From the NCBI GenBank assembly GCA_964565725.1, contig CAZMGA010000020.1, forward strand, positions 1 through 9,384: a DNA stretch of 9,384 bases. Direction: 5' to 3'. Shown here piece by piece: positions 1 through 9,384 of this stretch; position 1 is the stretch's first letter, and each line of letters starts with the position of its first letter. The position numbers and the translations under genes were made by a program. A model generated the notes under the pieces. It searched no databases. It had not been told where the DNA came from and saw only the letters and a list, made by a program, of their open reading frames with translations. This stretch comes from an uncultured archaeon (lineage in GTDB: Archaea > Iainarchaeota > Iainarchaeia > Iainarchaeales > 0-14-0-20-30-16).

Positions 1-3000
1 CCACAATCATTAAAAGTTAATAAATCATCAGGATTTGGACTTGTTGATTTTAAATAAGTTATTGCACTTTCATCCACCTCATAATCTGAATCACACGAAA
101 CTTCAAAATTTAGACTTTCAGCCCATTTTTCTGATTTTAATCCTACTGATGCATCAACACTTTCCTTTATTATTTTGTATTGATAATTATTTTGCCCAGT
201 TGCAACAAATAAAGATGCATAATTATCATCTTCATTTAAAGTAATTGAATTATTATAATCAATTAATTTAAGTGGAATTGCTTTATCTTTAATTATAACA
301 TATTTTGCCTCTTGATAATCATCAATAGACGGAATTACTCCTATAGCCATAAAAAAAGCAGCTACCGCTAATCCCGCACCAGCTACCCATCCCAATCCAG
401 GAATTTCTAATAAACCCATTATTAAAACTACTATTAACGCAGTTATTGCTACCGTTGAACCCGTCACAACAGAAGTAATAACCCCTGCATTAGTCATATC
501 CTGAACATTATTTCCAAATAATAATTCCTCACCATCACCAATTTTTATTCCATACCCACTTTTATCATCTTGTTTTTTACTTTCAGCTAACAAATTTGCA
601 AATGTATTTTCATTAGTTATACTTAATGCACCAGGTACATCCATATTATAAACTCTTAAAACATCTGAAACATAAATATCTTTATTTGAATTAGTTTCAT
701 CAAATATTGATGCCCCTTTAATTATAGTATCTTGCAACCTTTTATTTAATTCTTTAGAGTTTTCTAAATTAACATTTAAAAATGGATTATCAGAAAACAT
801 AAAATTGTTTGGCAAAGATGTTTGAACATTAGTTAAAATATTTTTTACTCTTTTATATGAATCCTCATCTTTTGTTTTACCATAAAGTTCTAAAGCATAA
901 GCACCAGAGACATTAGGTCTATTTATTTTAATTGTTTTATTACCTTCTAAACTTAAAATTTCTTTTGAATATAAATTCTCTCCTACCCCTTCAAATGTAA
1001 ATCCCACATAACCCTTATAATTTGTAGATCCTGAATTTAAATTATCGTAATATAAACCACAAGCTTCAGGTACTTTACCTTCATTATCTCTACAAATAGT
1101 AATATCTAAAGGCATATTACAGGTATTTTCTATTTGAATTTCAAATTGATTATCTGTATATAATGGATTAATATTTGTAGAATCAATTTCTCCTTTTACA
1201 GGTTCTAAAATTAAGGAATCAATTTCTTCACCATCTTTATTTTTTATTTTAATACAATCTTTAATATCCATTACTGAAACAGAAAAATCCAAAACATTAG
1301 ATTCAACTTTTTTAATTCCCGATGATGTTTTTATTGCACCTAATAAACTTAAAGATAAGTTTGTATTTCCATATACTCCTTTTGGAGTAAATTCTATAAA
1401 TCCATAATAAACATTATTTGTATTACCTTCCCAATTATTTACAAAAACTTTAGGGACAGAATAAATTAATTCTGTATTTCCAACAGAATTTAAAACAAAA
1501 GAATAATTGCCTAAACCTAAAGTACCTTTGTTATGTTTTAAAGTTGCATAAGCACTATTAAAATTAACTGGTGAAAAACTATTACCAATTTCATTTGAAC
1601 TTTCAATGCCACAAGTATTGTAAACTATTATAGGTATTGACATAGCTTTAGATCCATCACTAACAAAATTAGTATTATCAGAATTAAATCCTATAACTAA
1701 ACAATTATCTGCATTTGTAGGATAACCATCAACAATTAAATTTATTTCAAAAGGAACAATTCGAGTAAAAGATTTACCCTCAGTACTAAAATGCAAAGTT
1801 AAATAACCATTAATATTTTTCTTATTTGTAAGATCTTTAGCATAAACTTCATTTAAAGATGCTTTAAATAAATTATTTAATTCAGTTCTTGCTTCTCCTT
1901 CCAAAGTTGTAGAACCATCATAAACTAATTGCCTACCTTTTATTATTTTATTAGGATATGCATTTTTAATATAATTTTGCATCTCACTTATATCTAAATA
2001 TCCAGAATTATTATAAGAATAATTATCTATAACCAAATCAGAGTATTCATAAACAATATCCGAAGCAGTATTATTTATTAAAGTCAAACTATCAAACCCT
2101 TCTTTTGTAGATGGATAAGATAAATTTACTGTTAATATTTCAGGATCAAAATCAAACATTTTTACAGAAACTTCTAAATCATGTTTTTTATTGTAATAAG
2201 AATTATATCCTTCTTTGGAAACCAATATTTGAATATAGGTACCAGCAACTAAATCTTCTGCTTTTAATTCACAGTTAACAACACCTAAATAATCAGTAGG
2301 CATATCTTTACAGTATTTAACTACAGAATAATTTTTTGAAGTTGGTTTTTTAATTTTAAATGTAACTAAAGCATCCTTTAAAGTATTATTTTCAGAAGTT
2401 ACACTCACTTTAACATTTTGAGTAATTTCTGGCGCTAAAATTCTATCAGGAAATAATTTTACATTCATATCTTTTGATTCATTAACATTAAATAATAAAG
2501 ACAAAGCAGGTTTTCCTTTAACAATTATTTTTTTATCATCATCAACAATTAAAAAATTCAAATATGATTCTTCATTTATTATAGATGTTAAAACCATTTT
2601 TCCAGAAATATATTTATTAGAATAAAAATTATCAAATAAGTATTTTTCTAAAATAACACCAAAATAATTTTCTTTATAATTTTCTTTTTCTGTATTTGGT
2701 CCAAAAATATTTAAATCAGAAATTCTCAAAAAACTTCTTTCAGAAACATTTTCTTTTACTACAGCAAAACTTTCACCTTCTGTCAGCGCATTATAAATTT
2801 GTAAATAACCATTTTTTATTTTACCATCAGAATCATTTATACCATTTAAAATATCAAAATTTAATTCATAAACATGTCCTGAGTTTAATAAATAAGATTT
2901 ATCTTCATAAGTTTCAACATATAAATCGTCAGTTCTATCTAATAAAGTGTATCTTCCACAAAATTGGTCTGAATCACAAACTGAATTTGTGCCTATAGCA

Positions 3001-5207
3001 TAACTTTTAGATTCTTTATATTCACTAATATTATCAACAAACAATTCCCAATTAAAATTTAAAGTATCATATAATTTAACACTAGAATCATCTTTTACCT
3101 TTATTTTATAAAATACTCTATAAATACCCCTATCATCAACATCAAAAAAAGATTTTGCAACTTTTGCTTCACCAGTAGTTAATATTTCTTCTTCTAAATC
3201 TTCATATAACAAATCAGATTCTGCAGAAGTATAAGAATTAATAATAAAAAATTTTTCTTGATCTACTAATTCATTATCCCCTAAATTCAAATAAAATTCA
3301 AAATCATCATCAATATCATTAATTAAAATATCAAAACCTAAGTAATATTCTTTACCAATTGTTAAAGACTCTTTTGAACTAGAACTTATTTTTGAAAACG
3401 CACCTAAAAATTCTACACTTGAAGAATCTTTATTAGTTAATGGTTTCATTTTAATATCTTCTTCCCAATTTTCATTAGTAAATAAAAGTCTCGCTTCACT
3501 CACATATTTATAATAATCATCGTCATCATCTTCTACAACATAATAAATTTGATGACCTGATTTAAAAGAAGAATAAACATTACCTGAAATATTAGTTATT
3601 TTAGTACCTAAATTTTTTCCAGCTTTATTATAAAAACTTACTTTTGCACCAACTAAAGGATCATTATCTTCATCAAAAATATTTAAATTAATTAAAGAAT
3701 AACCAAAAGACATAGTTATATTCAAATCAATTTCAGGAATTTCACCAGCATTTGTTTGAGAGATTATAAAACTTTGACTAAAAGTTTCTGAAAATCCATT
3801 ATATAATCTTAATTTATAAACTCCTTCAGGAACTATAAAACTTGTTGCTCCATCTTCATCTGTATTATCAATATCGTATGAAATTAAATCAAATTGTGTT
3901 AAGTCATCAATCAAAAATACTTTTACATCTTCAACAGGATATAAATCTTCATCTAATACTTTTACATTTACTTTTGCTCTACTATATTCAGACATTTTTT
4001 TAACAAGAATTGTAAAATTAGTAGATGTACTTTTAATATCTAATTGATAATTAGATATAGGTGCTAAATCCTCATTATTTGGATTAAAATCTAAATAATA
4101 AATACCATAATCATAAACTGGCAAATCAATTTTATTATTGTTTACTGTCCCTTTATAGATTACTAAACCAGAAGAATTTTTTAAAGACAAATCACCTGAC
4201 AAATTATAAGAGCTAGAAAAATTTACATTTACATATCCTTTTGTTGGTTGACTTAATTGAATTTTAATTTCTGTTAATTCATTTTCCAAAATTTCAATAT
4301 TTACATAACTTGAAGCATTATCTTTAATAGCATAAACAGTATAACTACCAATTGGCAAATCAGAAATATTTGAAATACCTAAATTATTTGTGTTTGTAAT
4401 ATCTATTTCAGAACGTAAATCTTTAGAATCATAAACTTTTATTTTTACATTACTAATAGAAACACCTAATTCATTGACTACAATTACTTTTAAAGCTCCA
4501 TTAGATATATTTCCTTTTAAGTTATAAGTTATAGGACTAAATTCTAAACTACATGCTAAATTTTCACAAATTTGACCTGAAGTTAATTTATAACCTTCTA
4601 AACTAGGGGTAAATATAATATTTCCACAATTAGAAGGAACTTCTAAATTAGCAACACTATTTGTTACAATTAAATTTTTTGAAAAATTAGTTTTATCACA
4701 ATTAATTAATAAATCAAAATTTTTACTTAAATTAGAACCATCTATGTTTTGCATATAAACTGTAACGGGCATTAAAATTGTTTTATTTACTAAATTTATA
4801 GTTAAACTTTTTGAAAAATCATAAATATCTTTTTCAGTAGTATAATCTTCTAAATCTATTTCAGAAATAGTTATTGTTTTTGATTTTGGTAATTTTATTA
4901 TTCCAAAACCTTCTTCTGCATATCCTTCATATAATTTGCCATCAACTAAAACACTAAAATTAAAATTATCTATTAATTGAATGCCATTATTTTGAAACGT
5001 AAAAGAAACATCAGTTTTAGGACTATAAAGTAAAAAAAACAAAACTAAAAAAATAATTAACAAAAATAAAACTAAAAAAAAGACCATTGAAGGCATTACT
5101 TTGTCAATTTTATCAGTTAATTTCTTTATTGGTATCTTTGTATCAATTTTATCTATTAAATCATAATATTTATCTTCAACTTTATAATAAAAATCCAAAA
5201 AACCCAT
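1..5207 (-). CDS. Giant membrane-anchored surface/adhesin-like protein. The N-terminal 1,735 aa are visible and the 3' end lies beyond the left window edge.
   Basis: I reverse-complemented and translated this region by hand. ATG at 5207..5205 gives MGFLDFYYKVEDKYYDLIDKIDTKIPIKKLTDKIDKVMPSMVFFLVLFLLIIFLVLFFLLYSPKTDVSF... and the frame runs with no TAA/TAG/TGA down to position 3 (...KSTSPNPDDLLTFNDC), leaving 2 nt. An in-frame TAA lies upstream at 5306..5304. The track lists no minus-strand ORFs here, which fits one frame that never terminates inside the window. Codons are strongly A/T-ending, as in the neighbouring genes. The composition (N, S, T, Y, D, K rich), about 27 N-x-S/T sequons by hand count, and 16 Cys confined to the predicted ectodomain fit an extracellular protein. 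Confidence 0.9.
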   Translation of the reverse strand, partial: MGFLDFYYKVEDKYYDLIDKIDTKIPIKKLTDKIDKVMPSMVFFLVLFLLIIFLVLFFLLYSPKTDVSFTFQNNGIQLIDNFNFSVLVDGKLYEGYAEEGFGIIKLPKSKTITISEIDLEDYTTEKDIYDFSKSLTINLVNKTILMPVTVYMQNIDGSNLSKNFDLLINCDKTNFSKNLIVTNSVANLEVPSNCGNIIFTPSLEGYKLTSGQICENLACSLEFSPITYNLKGNISNGALKVIVVNELGVSISNVKIKVYDSKDLRSEIDITNTNNLGISNISDLPIGSYTVYAIKDNASSYVNIEILENELTEIKIQLSQPTKGYVNVNFSSSYNLSGDLSLKNSSGLVIYKGTVNNNKIDLPVYDYGIYYLDFNPNNEDLAPISNYQLDIKSTSTNFTILVKKMSEYSRAKVNVKVLDEDLYPVEDVKVFLIDDLTQFDLISYDIDNTDEDGATSFIVPEGVYKLRLYNGFSETFSQSFIISQTNAGEIPEIDLNITMSFGYSLINLNIFDEDNDPLVGAKVSFYNKAGKNLGTKITNISGNVYSSFKSGHQIYYVVEDDDDDYYKYVSEARLLFTNENWEEDIKMKPLTNKDSSSVEFLGAFSKISSSSKESLTIGKEYYLGFDILINDIDDDFEFYLNLGDNELVDQEKFFIINSYTSAESDLLYEDLEEEILTTGEAKVAKSFFDVDDRGIYRVFYKIKVKDDSSVKLYDTLNFNWELFVDNISEYKESKSYAIGTNSVCDSDQFCGRYTLLDRTDDLYVETYEDKSYLLNSGHVYELNFDILNGINDSDGKIKNGYLQIYNALTEGESFAVVKENVSERSFLRISDLNIFGPNTEKENYKENYFGVILEKYLFDNFYSNKYISGKMVLTSIINEESYLNFLIVDDDKKIIVKGKPALSLLFNVNESKDMNVKLFPDRILAPEITQNVKVSVTSENNTLKDALVTFKIKKPTSKNYSVVKYCKDMPTDYLGVVNCELKAEDLVAGTYIQILVSKEGYNSYYNKKHDLEVSVKMFDFDPEILTVNLSYPSTKEGFDSLTLINNTASDIVYEYSDLVIDNYSYNNSGYLDISEMQNYIKNAYPNKIIKGRQLVYDGSTTLEGEARTELNNLFKASLNEVYAKDLTNKKNINGYLTLHFSTEGKSFTRIVPFEINLIVDGYPTNADNCLVIGFNSDNTNFVSDGSKAMSIPIIVYNTCGIESSNEIGNSFSPVNFNSAYATLKHNKGTLGLGNYSFVLNSVGNTELIYSVPKVFVNNWEGNTNNVYYGFIEFTPKGVYGNTNLSLSLLGAIKTSSGIKKVESNVLDFSVSVMDIKDCIKIKNKDGEEIDSLILEPVKGEIDSTNINPLYTDNQFEIQIENTCNMPLDITICRDNEGKVPEACGLYYDNLNSGSTNYKGYVGFTFEGVGENLYSKEILSLEGNKTIKINRPNVSGAYALELYGKTKDEDSYKRVKNILTNVQTSLPNNFMFSDNPFLNVNLENSKELNKRLQDTIIKGASIFDETNSNKDIYVSDVLRVYNMDVPGALSITNENTFANLLAESKKQDDKSGYGIKIGDGEELLFGNNVQDMTNAGVITSVVTGSTVAITALIVVLIMGLLEIPGLGWVAGAGLAVAAFFMAIGVIPSIDDYQEAKYVIIKDKAIPLKLIDYNNSITLNEDDNYASLFVATGQNNYQYKIIKESVDASVGLKSEKWAESLNFEVSCDSDYEVDESAITYLKSTSPNPDDLLTFNDC
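330..482 (-). other. Internal Gly/Ala/Ser/Thr-rich transmembrane helical hairpin of the giant protein (aa 1576-1626)
   Basis: The sequence is VITSVVTGSTVAITALIVVLIMGLL-EIPGLG-WVAGAGLAVAAFFMAIGVIP, two ~22-25-aa hydrophobic segments joined by a 6-aa Pro/Gly turn. The Gly and Ala codons (GGN/GCN) account for the only conspicuous local G+C rise in the window. The ORF then continues in frame with hydrophilic sequence (SIDDYQEAKYVIIKDK...). Confidence 0.75.
798..2159 (-). other. Three successive ~150-165-aa ectodomain modules of unknown fold, each containing a h-x-h-x-N-(N)-T-[A/C] strand (aa ~1017-1470)
   Basis: The marker strands are LTLINNTASDIVY (aa 1041-1053), IPIIVYNTCGIES (aa 1192-1204) and FEIQIENTCNMPLDITIC (aa 1355-1372), spaced about 152 and 164 aa apart. 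Cys residues are paired or clustered at C1169/C1199 and C1363/C1372/C1383. The pattern resembles CARDB/NEW3-like all-beta domains, but I cannot confirm that without profile searches. Confidence 0.35.
2160..2432 (-). other. Additional isolated carboxypeptidase-regulatory-like module (aa 926-1016)
   Basis: The sequence is PEITQNVKVSVTSENNTLKDALVTFKIKK...CKDMPTDYLGVVNCELKAEDLVAGTYIQILVSKEGYNSYYNKKHDLEVSV. It shows the same strand/turn pattern, and the G-x-Y-x-h-x-h-x-x-x-G-Y ending is typical of that fold family. It also carries a Cys pair (C966/C979). Confidence 0.5.
3438..5012 (-). other. Array of six tandem ~87-aa beta-sandwich modules (prealbumin-like / carboxypeptidase-regulatory-like pattern), aa 66-590
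   Basis: A pattern of alternating hydrophobic strands recurs, followed by D/N-x-x-G and h-P-x-G-x-Y-x-h. Examples are ALKVIVVNELGVSISNVKIKVYD...NNLGISNISDLPIGSYTVYAIKDN (aa 238-297), AKVNVKVLDEDLYPVEDVKVFLID...NTDEDGATSFIVPEGVYKLRLYNGF (aa 411-472) and LINLNIFDEDNDPLVGAKVSFYNKAGKNLGTKITNISGNVYSSF (aa 505-548). The modules have diverged too far to give a DNA-level repeat. The fold assignment rests on motif recognition, not on a search. Confidence 0.6.
5025..5087 (-). other. N-terminal transmembrane signal-anchor of the giant protein (aa 41-61)
   Basis: The segment MVFFLVLFLLIIFLVLFFLLY is 21 uninterrupted hydrophobic residues. It follows a charged 40-aa tail ending KKLTDKIDKV and precedes SPKTD. 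I saw no obvious signal-peptidase or class III pilin-type cleavage motif. Confidence 0.8.
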
Positions 5208-5309: not shown

Positions 5310-6305
5310 ATGTTAAAAATTAATTATAATAAATCCATTAATTTATGTTTAAACGAGTTAAATTTATCTTTAGATCCTATATCTAAAAGTGCCATTTCAG
5401 ACATAAATTTTGTGTCTCACGCCCATAAAGACCATATAAGTAAAAACACAAAAGAAAATTCCATATATTTTGGTACAAAACCTACTTTAGATATTGCAGA
5501 AATTTTGTTTAATGATCAAAAACAATCAAAAATATTGGAATTTAATAAAAATTACAAAATAGATAATTTAAGTTATAAAATAATTAATTCAGGCCACATT
5601 TTGGGAAGTTATTCATTAGTTTTAGAGTATAATGGTTCAAAAATTACAATAACTAGTGATATAAATACTTATAATACAACAACTACAAAAGCCACAATAC
5701 CCGAAGATACAGACATTTTAATTATTGAAAGTACTTATGGCTCAGAAAAAGACATTTTTCCAAAAAGAGATGAAGAATATTCTAAATTATTAAGATGGAT
5801 TTTATTAAATAGTTTAAATAATAAGTTGCCAATTATAAGTGCATATACATTAGGGAAAACACAAGAAATATTAAAACTAATTTGTGATAATACTAATTTA
5901 AAAACAGGCTTAACTAATGAAGCTTATGACATTTGTAATATTTACGAAAAAAATAATATTAAATTAAAAAACTATGAAAAAATTAATGGAAATGTGAATG
6001 AATTAGATTTAATGATTTTACCTCCATCTAAAATAAATAAAAGCTACATTCACGCTTTATCTACTATTTGTAAAAAAGACATAACTTTCGCGTCAACAAC
6101 AGGTTTAGGCTTAAACTTTGGTCAACAATTTAAAATTTCAGACCATAGTGATTTTAATGGATTAATTAATTATATAAAGGAAAGTAATGCAAAAACAATC
6201 TATACTTATCATGGAAAAGATGTAGAATTATCTCTTGCTTTAAATAAAAAATTGAATAAATTTTCAAAACCTTTAAGAGAAATTAAAAAAATAGAAATAA
6301 TTTAA
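5310..6305 (+). CDS. Short-form beta-CASP family metallo-beta-lactamase-fold nuclease (aCPSF2-like / ligase-associated-exonuclease-like), 331 aa
   Basis: The full motif set is present. Motif 1 is LSLDP (D22). Motif 2 is HAHKDH (aa 37-42, nt 5418..5435). Motif 3 is NSGHILGS (H96). Motif 4 is ITSDIN, followed by LIIESTYG. The beta-CASP segment PIISAYTLGKTQEIL matches the canonical P-x-F-A-x-G-R-x-Q-E pattern. Motif B is ISDHSD and motif C is TYHGK. There are no KH domains or C-terminal extension. The stop codon is TAA. Confidence 0.88.
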   Translation: MLKINYNKSINLCLNELNLSLDPISKSAISDINFVSHAHKDHISKNTKENSIYFGTKPTLDIAEILFNDQKQSKILEFNKNYKIDNLSYKIINSGHILGSYSLVLEYNGSKITITSDINTYNTTTTKATIPEDTDILIIESTYGSEKDIFPKRDEEYSKLLRWILLNSLNNKLPIISAYTLGKTQEILKLICDNTNLKTGLTNEAYDICNIYEKNNIKLKNYEKINGNVNELDLMILPPSKINKSYIHALSTICKKDITFASTTGLGLNFGQQFKISDHSDFNGLINYIKESNAKTIYTYHGKDVELSLALNKKLNKFSKPLREIKKIEII

Positions 6306-7446: not shown

Positions 7447-9384
7447 CTAATTTAATAACTTTTCAGGATTCCACCAAAAGGACAAACCTGCACCTTCGTA
7501 AGTCATACAAACATCATTAGTATCCATACCATTTATTATTTCTTCTAATGATTCATATTTTAGACCTTTTGGTACTGATTTAATAGTTGCAGAATCACTA
7601 GCTACCTTTATTTCTGGAACTACATTTGTAGATTCATTAGGAGCATAGAATATACCTCTATAATTTACATTATTTACAGTTCTTTGTAATACTTGTTCAT
7701 CCCATTCTAAACCATAAGTAATACCTTGTAATTGACTTACAGGTGCTACTTTTGCATTAGTACCTAAAGTATCTCTAACATAAACATTACTAGTATATCT
7801 ACTACCATCAAATGTTTTGCCTTCATCATTACTTGATCTAAATGTCCAATATATTAAAGAACTTCCAGCAGTTACTGTTTGATTATCTACAACAGTTTGA
7901 TAGAAAGCATAAGCATCACCATCATTTTGTTTTGTAATACTTAAATCAAATACAAATGGTTTACTCAAATATTTTATTATATTATATGTAGCTGTATTTG
8001 TTCCTGATTTAGGAGTTATTTTTAATAAATAACCATTATCTACAGTATTCATAGTTTGGAAATCTTGGGTAGAATCTAATTCTAAATGAACTATTGGAGT
8101 AGAGCTACTTCTTAATGAAGGTTCTAACCAATAATCTTCATCACTAGATGAAAATTTAACATTATCTGGATTTTCATCAACAGAGAAATCTATACCATAA
8201 CCAACTCTATCAATTACACCATTTACTACTCCTACTGTTGCATCCATAGGCATATAATACAAAGGATTTATTTCATGAGTAATAGGTTCTAAATATACTT
8301 TAATTTTAGATATTTTAGAATTAACAAAACTCCTATCATAATTATTAGGAAATATTGAAATATTATCAACAGGTTCATTAAAATCTATTACTAGATCTAC
8401 ATTATATTCTCCGGCATAAGGTAATTGATAACCTTCTGCTTGTATAGATTTATAAGCCATAGGCAAAAATTCTAATTTACCACTTGAAATTAAAGCTACA
8501 ATTTCTTTTTCATGTTGTACATTAGATAAAAATCCTGTTAAAACATATTCTTTGAAATCATTCATAAAATCAATAGTATAACCATCTTTCATTAAATTAG
8601 CTTTAAAATGTAATAAATTATAATCTTTAGAATTATATTTTAAATCTAATTCAGAAGTAGAAGTTATTTTTAAATCAGCAGATAAATTTAATTGTGTTAA
8701 TTTATCTCTAAATAATAATTCAGTTAATTGTGTAGCATCACAAAAATTATCTTTACAATTTACAGCATCATATTCCCAATTATAATTTACTCTTGGTTTG
8801 TTATTTGTACCTGTAATTCCTAATCTATTATTAGGTCCAAAACAACTATAACTTATAACATCTTGATATTGATTAGAATCTTGCATCATTCTAAATAATA
8901 ACATAAAAGTATCTCTACCAGTTGTTCTTTCATTTTCAGCAGGAGTTTCTATATTTTCTTTATAAACTTCTTGATCTTTTTTTGCTAATTCTCCTTCTTT
9001 ATCTATTTTACACCAACCAATTTCTTTTTCAACAATTTTTCCATCTTTTTCTAAATTGATAGCATCAATAGCTCCAATTACACTTGCTTTTGAACCATTT
9101 ACATCAGTATTCATTTTAGAAGTTGTCCCATAAAGAGATTTTAAAACATCAGTTTCTAAATACAATACAGCTGATTCAATTTTATTAACTTCATCAGATT
9201 TAGTTATTTTTATAGGATAATATGCATAAGTATTAGTTCCACTTTTTCTTTGATAAACATCCCAATCACCATCATTTAATTTATAATTTAAATCAAATTT
9301 ACTTGATTTTATAGAATCACCAGATAATTTATATTTTGCATCTCTTATTTCTGCTGAATTTAAATCTAAAGCTTTTACTTTTGC
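7447..9384 (-). CDS. Large orphan protein, probably secreted or surface-located. The C-terminal 645 aa are visible and the 5' end lies beyond the right window edge.
   Basis: The track starts this ORF at 9165, but that codon is TTG (caa on the plus strand at 9163..9165). The same frame continues upstream for 73 further sense codons to position 9384 (AKVKALDLNSAEIRDAKYKLSGDSIKSSKFDLNYKLNDGDWDVYQRKSGTNTYAYYPIKITKSDEVNKIESAV-LYLETD...) with no stop and the same composition. It ends ...GAGLSFWWNPEKLLN followed by TAG at 7449..7447. The composition is N/S/T/Y/D/G-rich and looks beta-rich. It has five Cys, including NCKDNFC. The visible part has no TM segment and no motif I recognise. Confidence 0.85.
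   Translation of the reverse strand, partial: AKVKALDLNSAEIRDAKYKLSGDSIKSSKFDLNYKLNDGDWDVYQRKSGTNTYAYYPIKITKSDEVNKIESAVLYLETDVLKSLYGTTSKMNTDVNGSKASVIGAIDAINLEKDGKIVEKEIGWCKIDKEGELAKKDQEVYKENIETPAENERTTGRDTFMLLFRMMQDSNQYQDVISYSCFGPNNRLGITGTNNKPRVNYNWEYDAVNCKDNFCDATQLTELLFRDKLTQLNLSADLKITSTSELDLKYNSKDYNLLHFKANLMKDGYTIDFMNDFKEYVLTGFLSNVQHEKEIVALISSGKLEFLPMAYKSIQAEGYQLPYAGEYNVDLVIDFNEPVDNISIFPNNYDRSFVNSKISKIKVYLEPITHEINPLYYMPMDATVGVVNGVIDRVGYGIDFSVDENPDNVKFSSSDEDYWLEPSLRSSSTPIVHLELDSTQDFQTMNTVDNGYLLKITPKSGTNTATYNIIKYLSKPFVFDLSITKQNDGDAYAFYQTVVDNQTVTAGSSLIYWTFRSSNDEGKTFDGSRYTSNVYVRDTLGTNAKVAPVSQLQGITYGLEWDEQVLQRTVNNVNYRGIFYAPNESTNVVPEIKVASDSATIKSVPKGLKYESLEEIINGMDTNDVCMTYEGAGLSFWWNPEKLLN

Follow-up and report, generated by a model that had tools for sequence, protein, structure and literature searches.

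A Gly/Ala-rich predicted membrane hairpin between the stalk and C-terminal domain of a giant N-anchored archaeal surface protein

A giant surface-protein gene with an internal hydrophobic hairpin

The DNA analyzed here (the window; 9,384 nucleotides with a G+C content of ∼24%; contig CAZMGA010000020.1 of assembly GCA_964565725.1) comes from an uncultured archaeon of the Iainarchaeales. Its largest gene, located on the minus strand, encodes a giant surface protein (here called the query) in which a Gly/Ala-rich pair of hydrophobic helices, the hairpin, lies far downstream of an N-terminal transmembrane (TM) anchor. Open reading frame (ORF) analysis gave a minus-strand frame of 1,767 codons without a stop, from 5303 to base 3. 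The start of the gene was placed at the ATG at 5207 (MGFLDFYYK...; the protein opens MGFLDFYYKVEDKYY), which agrees with the N termini of homologs, and the window therefore covers residues 1 to 1735 of the giant protein. Judging from its relatives, about 680 more codons are expected past the left window edge. The features of the gene are as follows.

3..5207, minus strand: giant surface-protein gene, first 1,735 codons, open past the left window edge
5088..5207, minus strand (aa 1 to 40): conserved, predicted cytoplasmic N-terminal motif MGFLDFYYKVEDKYYDLIDKIDTKIPIKKLTDKIDKVMPS, which recurs in P0003 to P0005 and in paralogous giants
5025..5087, minus strand (aa 41 to 61): predicted N-terminal TM anchor MVFFLVLFLLIIFLVLFFLLY; 19-aa Kyte-Doolittle (KD) mean of 3.62, approximate insertion energy (dG) of −8.5
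483..5024, minus strand: stalk of ∼1,514 residues, with beta-sandwich/Ig-like domains predicted from Pfam matches and hydropathy
408..482, minus strand (aa 1576 to 1600): hairpin helix A, VITSVVTGSTVAITALIVVLIMGLL, identified from translation and hydropathy; kept in P0001, P0002, P0006, and P0010
390..407, minus strand (aa 1601 to 1606): turn EIPGLG, within a conserved (I/V)P-x-x-G-W turn motif
330..389, minus strand (aa 1607 to 1626): hairpin helix B, WVAGAGLAVAAFFMAIGVIP; its opening GW is nearly invariant across the subclade
3..329, minus strand: acidic flank after the hairpin (SIDDYQE...) and start of the C-terminal domain, 109 aa; aligns with P0001 and P0002

The minus-strand translation of positions 330 to 482 is exactly VITSVVTGSTVAITALIVVLIMGLLEIPGLGWVAGAGLAVAAFFMAIGVIP (aa 1576 to 1626), so that the two adjacent helices joined by EIPGLG are present as the initial annotation had described them. 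Counting gave 1,514 residues between the anchor and the hairpin, where ∼1,515 had been reported, and the Cys-containing sequence of at least 109 aa said to follow the hairpin is 109 aa with two cysteines before the window edge. KD means over 19 aa are 2.38 and 2.19 for helices A and B, compared to no more than 1.24 in the remaining ectodomain, and both helices pass classical hydropathy thresholds for membrane spans. Approximate insertion energies on the Hessa scale are −0.9 for helix A, −0.2 for helix B, and −8.5 for the N-terminal TM helix; these are rough figures, calculated with approximate scale values and without position weighting. By these measures, both hairpin helices are predicted to be of TM grade, albeit marginally. 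The N-terminal TM helix and the hairpin element are the only hydrophobic parts in proteins of 1,735 to ∼2,400 residues.

Shuffling the protein sequence indicated that the hairpin is not random. None of 2,000 shuffles produced a 55-residue stretch containing no more than one strongly polar residue (mean, 21; maximum, 38), and two nonoverlapping windows of the observed hydrophobicity within 60 aa were found in one shuffle of 2,000. These stricter statistics replaced a threshold of KD ≥ 1.6, which was dropped as nondiscriminating because the protein is so rich in Ile, Leu, and Val that 92% of shuffles reach it once. The shuffle statistics rule out a chance hydrophobic run as the origin of the hairpin. 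Gly and Ala account for 29% of the hairpin versus 9% of the protein elsewhere. Because of the Gly and Ala codons, the DNA encoding the hairpin (330 to 482) forms a local spike of 40% G+C, compared to 24% for the whole gene. Helix B contains GAGLAVAA. The arrangement, in which a short turn rich in turn-forming residues connects two hydrophobic segments of ∼20 residues, is that of a generic TM helical hairpin; Pro and Gly are well known to form the turns of such hairpins, and Trp favors membrane interfaces.

The stalk contains no hydrophobic window in a hydropathy scan (maximum 19-aa KD mean, 1.24). In the query, its best-scoring Pfam match is CarboxypepD_reg at 31.8 bits, just under the cutoff of 32.3 bits, and matches to SpaA, bMG3, and Ig-like domains are weak. 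The stalk of the homolog P0001 matches CarboxypepD_reg (51.9 bits) and Big_1 (42.4 bits), both over the Pfam cutoffs.

The N-terminal motif of ∼40 aa, which stands directly before the TM anchor, has the consensus YY..LDKI..IP.YKIIDPIDKV.PSF in P0003 to P0005 and in paralogous giants of the homologous loci L002 and L003. Copies start at L002 13293, L002 19762, and L003 17261, and the motif is common to all of the paralogous giants. Searches of Pfam and NCBIfam returned no match to it. Given the striking conservation of PS(F/L/M) where it meets the membrane, the motif could be a dedicated targeting or processing signal.

Close homologs extend far beyond the hairpin

Homologs were collected with a full-length query search and an exhaustive HMMER search. 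The full-length search returned P0001 (2,413 aa) and P0002 (2,417 aa), which are 41 to 42% identical to the query over 95% of its length. The loci of both are syntenic with that of the query; genes for a NOG1 GTPase and a metallo-beta-lactamase-like protein adjoin. Both proteins have a double hydrophobic segment at the aligned site, followed by a conserved acidic motif, DD(Y/W)QE. Their hairpins end at aa 1584 to 1590 of 2,413 to 2,417, and the hairpin is therefore internal, since ∼830 residues follow it.

The position of the hairpin is kept in P0001, P0002, P0006, and P0010, and the (I/V)P-x-x-G-W turn is conserved in an alignment of the query's subclade (14 members). The more distant homolog P0003 (locus L004) appears from its sequence to have a different solution at the hairpin position. 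A polar segment stands in place of helix A (residues ∼1637 to 1700), and a 25-aa His/aromatic-rich amphipathic insertion, FKAVWHGMKFLKTHFWHAATNPY, separates a GFWAGLG motif from helix B.

A word-indexed search returned no further relatives with the last 500 aa and one extra protein with the alignment; low-complexity candidates probably swamped it. No relatives were confirmed in a metagenome scan with the C-terminal 500 aa. In searches for the source contig, an exact 44-mer had no match among genome, metagenome, and viral contigs, and look-ups of the exact proteins of two neighboring genes were unsuccessful; the sole hit was a 2.1-kb Logan contig, and SRR8925755 was the one public run in which the locus was found.

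Sequence and conservation thus identify the hairpin as a genuine conserved pair of predicted membrane helices rich in small residues; the Pro/Gly turn between them closes with a putatively interfacial Trp. It marks the predicted junction between an Ig-like stalk of ∼1,500 residues and an extracellular C-terminal domain of ∼800 residues in a protein of ∼2,400 residues.

The C-terminal domain defines a large family

The hairpin and the C-terminal region together were used as the HMMER query, and counts refer to clusters at 50% identity. The C-terminal domain was found in 489 cluster representatives at an E value of ≤1e-3 and in 143 at ≤1e-30. The majority are proteins of 2,300 to 2,700 aa with the domain at the C terminus. 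Six cysteines of the domain are nearly invariant. The domain had no match in Pfam, NCBIfam, or the sequences of the PDB, and no account of the family turned up in the searchable literature. An anaerobic-digester metagenome (PMC10793357) is the origin of one related locus.

An AlphaFold2 model of the C-terminal domain in P0006, built from a 36-sequence alignment, had a mean predicted local distance difference test score (pLDDT) of 74.8 and a predicted template modeling score (pTM) of 0.69. As modeled, the domain is mainly beta and is composed of several subdomains with a helical insert. A Foldseek search with this model against PDB and BFVD returned no meaningful relative. The hairpin was not packed into the domain, with pLDDT values of 26 to 43, compared to 75 to 95 in the confidently modeled parts of the domain. 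A model of the query's own 366-aa fragment was uninformative (pLDDT, 49).

The majority of the giant members have a Gly/Ala-rich hydrophobic element just ahead of the C-terminal domain. In 103 full-length representatives, nearly all of which have the N-terminal TM helix, the element has a median distance of 861 residues from the C terminus and a Gly-plus-Ala content of 29%, versus a background of 15%. In the alignment, it sits between the last stalk domain (...VPGxYG...) and an acidic DPC...DY(V/I)INL segment, the counterpart of which in the query is DDYQEAKYVIIKD.

The hydrophobicity of the element varies widely, with clearly transmembrane versions at one extreme and, at the other, glycine-zipper-like versions that are too polar for a membrane span. 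At least one TM-grade helix was found in 36 of the 103 representatives, only one in 29, and two in 7. In 28, each of the two helices reaches at least marginal hydrophobicity (dG ≤ 4), and the others have weaker versions or no element. The initial annotation had made its proposal depend on whether homologs lack the hairpin, and the answer is divided: close relatives keep a TM-grade hairpin, and most of the 103 representatives have a weaker one or none.

By Pfam, some of the weak versions are genuine glycine zippers. A segment of P0135 scores 28.3 bits to Gly-zipper_Omp (PF13488; cutoff, 25 bits), and segments of further homologs score 24 to 28 bits to PF13441, under its cutoff of 28.9 bits. The query hairpin itself matched none of the Pfam glycine-zipper models (PF13488, PF13441, and PF05433); its only match was to DUF4870 (E = 0.05). 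The spacing [GAS]xxx[GAS]xxx[GAS] occurs on average 3.4 times per element across the family, a raw count without a null model. In distant members, helix B carries recurring signatures such as NPW..G...G.T...Y. A loose helix-B regular expression was only modestly enriched (70 of 144, versus 18 of 144 in shuffles), also matches signal peptides, and was not relied on.

Short forms and gene neighborhood

Three further genes lie upstream of the giant gene in the window.

5310-6305, plus strand: metallo-beta-lactamase/beta-CASP-like protein, 331 aa, divergent with respect to the giant gene; synteny kept in L002 and L003
6385-7407: NOG1-type GTPase (Pfam NOG1_N, 84.5 bits; NOG1, 44.2 bits)
7447..9384, minus strand: short-form paralog of the C-terminal domain, at least 645 aa, identified by tblastn; N terminus cut by the right window edge

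The best NCBIfam match of the 331-aa protein is the ligase-associated DNA-damage-response exonuclease, at 123 bits versus a cutoff of 325 bits. GTPases of the NOG1 type are found in archaea and eukaryotes, which marks the source as archaeal; a DPANN origin is plausible. In tblastn comparisons, the ORF at 7447 to 9384 was 36% identical over 682 aa to an 843-aa protein of locus L003 and also matched within the C-terminal domains of P0001 and P0002. Motifs shared by this paralog are FCDATQL, LLHFKANLMKDGYTIDFMNDF, and YYMPMDATVGV..RVGYG. The window thus encodes a giant form and a short form of one domain family.

At the N terminus of the 843-aa protein, a helix resembling a signal peptide precedes a Gly-rich stretch. 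This layout recurs in the family. Thirteen representatives of 760 to 1,180 aa start with a signal-peptide-like hydrophobic N terminus, mostly with classical ...VSA|D-type cleavage sites. Most of the 13 have a Gly-rich stretch ahead of the C-terminal domain; none was clear in P0110 and P0156. In none of the 13 is the stretch of TM grade (best dG, +3 to +11; median, ∼+4.7). Because signal-peptide-led short forms carry both parts, the Gly/Ala-rich element and the C-terminal domain are one evolutionary module that is always exported.

Homologous loci contain two to six consecutive giant genes (L002 6045-23040; L003 1-6141 and 10001-23143; L005 1-25115). The clustered giants are 1,092 to 2,696 aa long and have the same N-terminal anchor module, and short-form genes for the C-terminal domain (843 and 964 aa) are interspersed among them. 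The paralogous giants in these clusters are N-anchored, and their distal ends are free. The clustering suggests a multicomponent surface structure. HicA/HicB toxin-antitoxin pairs adjoin the giant gene at two unrelated homologous loci (L002 4497-4939 and L004 10097-10571).

Comparison with known systems

Glycine-zipper hairpins (PF13488, PF13441, and PF05433 [glycine zipper 2TM]; SlyB/Pcp-type lipoproteins) resemble the element in that two short helices rich in small residues meet at a tight turn and their outer ends lie on one side of the membrane. Their hydrophobicity, like that of the element, is often too low for capture by the translocon, and several segments of the family match the Pfam models, one of them above the cutoff. 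However, the query hairpin is rich in Ala, Val, and Ile and scores on none of these models, its host is an archaeon without an outer membrane, and it is internal to ∼2,400 residues rather than part of a small lipoprotein.

Fibrillar and giant adhesins (CarboxypepD_reg, Big_1, and SpaA type) share with the query a long beta-sandwich stalk with an anchor at one end and a nonrepeat domain at the other, and the Pfam matches of the query and P0001 are consistent with a tandem Ig-like/prealbumin-like stalk. The query differs in that its anchor is an N-terminal TM helix behind a conserved cytoplasmic motif, in that a second hydrophobic element, the hairpin, lies between the stalk and the head, and in that the head has no known relatives.

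Pore-forming colicins and the T domain of diphtheria toxin have a helix-turn-helix of ∼40 to 50 residues, uncharged and rich in Ala and Gly, that can enter the bilayer from one side. The query hairpin is likewise an uncharged Ala/Gly-rich helix-turn-helix, but theirs is buried in an amphipathic helix bundle until triggered, whereas the neighbors of the query hairpin are beta-rich. A buried hairpin of that type was not detected; the region was unpacked in AlphaFold2, a PDB profile search returned no match, and there was no sequence or fold similarity. Known fusogens (class I and class II/fusexin) did not resemble the protein in fold, and a C-terminal TM anchor like theirs was not found.

In YidC (P1 domain), SecD/F, and MacB/FtsX-type proteins, TM1 and TM2 are separated by a very large extracytoplasmic loop. 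They share with the query an N-in TM1 and a large exported loop after which the chain reenters the membrane. In contrast, the query loop consists of ∼1,500 residues of stalk, and what comes after it is an exported domain of 800 residues rather than a transport core.

Topology and alternative explanations

Charge statistics were compiled from 20-residue flanks in the 36 proteins with a TM-grade helix. Counts of Lys plus Arg versus Asp plus Glu were 106 versus 119 before TM1, 61 versus 120 after TM1, 61 versus 92 before the hairpin, and 35 versus 172 after the hairpin. The uncharged stretch is at least 41 aa long in 23 of the 36 proteins, the length of a hairpin and not of a single span. This pattern supports a predicted topology in which TM1 is N-in and both ends of the hairpin are outside the cell. 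The C-terminal domain is also predicted to be extracytoplasmic because its cysteines are nearly invariant and short-form paralogs export it behind signal peptides. Together with the acidic, Lys/Arg-poor flank, these results bear out the second ectodomain that the initial annotation had placed after the hairpin.

The sequence, its conservation and hydropathy, the charge asymmetry, and the module structure are observed, and from them we infer membrane insertion of the hairpin, the membrane that would take it, and any oligomerization of copies. With moderate confidence, we favor the reading that the hairpin anchors the query a second time in the cell's own membrane, which the protein would then span three times. 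In the query and its close relatives, both helices appear hydrophobic enough for sideways exit from the Sec translocon. Helix A would act as a stop-transfer signal that ends export of the stalk, and helix B would act as a reinitiating signal-anchor for the C-terminal domain. As a result, the N-terminal motif would be cytoplasmic, and the stalk, pinned at its two ends, would form an extracellular loop after TM1. The turn of the hairpin would face the cytoplasm, with the C-terminal domain outside, next to the membrane. Small-residue faces of the glycine-zipper type would probably drive tight helix packing, either within the hairpin or between copies. The low packing of the hairpin in AlphaFold2 fits a lipid-embedded segment better than a shielded preinsertion hairpin. 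For the query, the loop pinned at both ends that the initial annotation had put forward is the most economical topology.

Several points weigh against this reading. The hydrophobicity of the hairpin is marginal (approximate dG, −0.9 and −0.2) next to that of TM1 (−8.5), and the turn EIPGLG has no positive charge. Across the family, the element has glycine-zipper character and is often too polar for Sec integration, as the counts of TM-grade helices (at least one in 36 and two in 7 of 103) illustrate. The element persists in the secreted short forms, in none of which it is of TM grade. Because the 13 short forms led by a signal peptide lack any other anchor and carry only weak versions, a Sec-integrated anchor in the cell's own membrane cannot, as judged from these sequences, be the family-wide role. 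A stalk of 1,500 residues pinned at both ends would also be an odd design, and the neighboring paralogous giants in homologous loci have free distal ends.

The weak versions of the element could instead reflect packing of protein against protein. The Gly/Ala-rich helices might form a glycine-zipper bundle that oligomerizes the C-terminal domain, or a flexible linker, with the hydrophobicity of the query's subclade being incidental. Many members, and all 13 signal-peptide-led short forms, are too polar at this site to span a bilayer, AlphaFold2 confidence is low over the hairpin region, and the helix-B signatures of distant members (such as NPW..G...G.T...Y) suggest specific packing. However, an exposed or linker segment would very rarely extend over 55 residues with a single charged residue and KD values of 2.2 to 2.4, and the monomer model showed no packing against the domain; we consider this explanation unlikely. 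Insertion in trans, in which the stalk carries the C-terminal domain and the hairpin at its tip and the hairpin enters a partner or host membrane as an anchor, pore, or fusion element, is unlikely as well. The head-at-tip layout is the rule in fibrillar adhesins, and marginal hydrophobicity is what lets known glycine-zipper and pore-forming hairpins pass the producer's translocon and insert elsewhere. The marginal and variable hydrophobicity of the element, its glycine-zipper likeness family-wide (P0135 over the Gly-zipper_Omp cutoff and others just under cutoffs), its association with the C-terminal domain even in secreted short forms, and the N-anchored paralogous giants with free distal ends in the same clusters are all consistent with such a role. 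Nevertheless, both query helices are of TM grade, and the translocon of the producing cell would probably capture them; no amphipathic shielding fold surrounded the hairpin in the AlphaFold2 model, and the model of the C-terminal domain had no structural similarity to known fusogens or pore formers. A more specific version is somewhat more doubtful still. In it, the hairpin and C-terminal domain would be a trans-acting membrane-insertion device of small symbiotic archaea, presented on an N-anchored stalk of ∼50 nm or secreted as the short form, and the hairpin would oligomerize as an anchor or pore in the partner membrane.

Two other topologies have very little in their favor. If only helix B crossed the membrane, the query would be a two-span, receptor-like protein with a cytoplasmic C-terminal domain of ∼800 residues. 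Helix B is usually the more hydrophobic of the two, and only one TM-grade window was found in 29 of the 103 representatives. However, no other flank has as few Lys and Arg residues or is as acidic as the one after helix B (35 versus 172), the uncharged stretch is mostly of hairpin length, short forms export the same domain behind signal peptides, and its cysteines are conserved. On these grounds the single-span topology was rejected as highly improbable. The hairpin lies near the window edge, which is the sole point in favor of a C-terminal sorting or anchor signal of the archaeosortase/PGF-CTERM type in an ORF that ends just past the window. Neither a PGF motif nor a basic tail was found after the query hairpin, where the flank is acidic, and homologs with 95% coverage extend ∼830 residues past it. 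The sorting signal is thereby refuted for the homologs and has virtually no probability left for the query, and the internal position given in the initial annotation holds.

Implications

Helical hairpins and glycine zippers are themselves known kinds of element. What is new is the placement of such a hairpin inside a giant N-anchored archaeal stalk protein, its tie to an unannotated 800-residue domain, and the series from TM grade to zipper grade. The family architecture is defined for at least 489 clusters: a cytoplasmic motif, a TM anchor, a stalk of 1,500 aa, a Gly/Ala-rich hairpin, and a Cys-containing domain of 800 aa, with signal-peptide-led short forms adjoining the giants in gene clusters. 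The natural series of hairpins, from TM grade to glycine-zipper grade, provides a test set for the choice of membrane. Should the hairpin prove to be no more than another anchor in the membrane of the producing cell, the finding would amount to a modest topological curiosity.

According to a cryo-electron tomography study of a DPANN coculture, it is difficult to confirm which molecules make up the intercellular nanotube apparatus (PMC11329633). The C-terminal domain family supplies concrete, testable candidates for the cell surface and for the contacts between ultrasmall archaea and their partners. The query is one such candidate cell-contact protein, and if the module were a trans-acting device, it would be one of the molecules that make up the contacts seen between the cells of DPANN archaea and those of their hosts.

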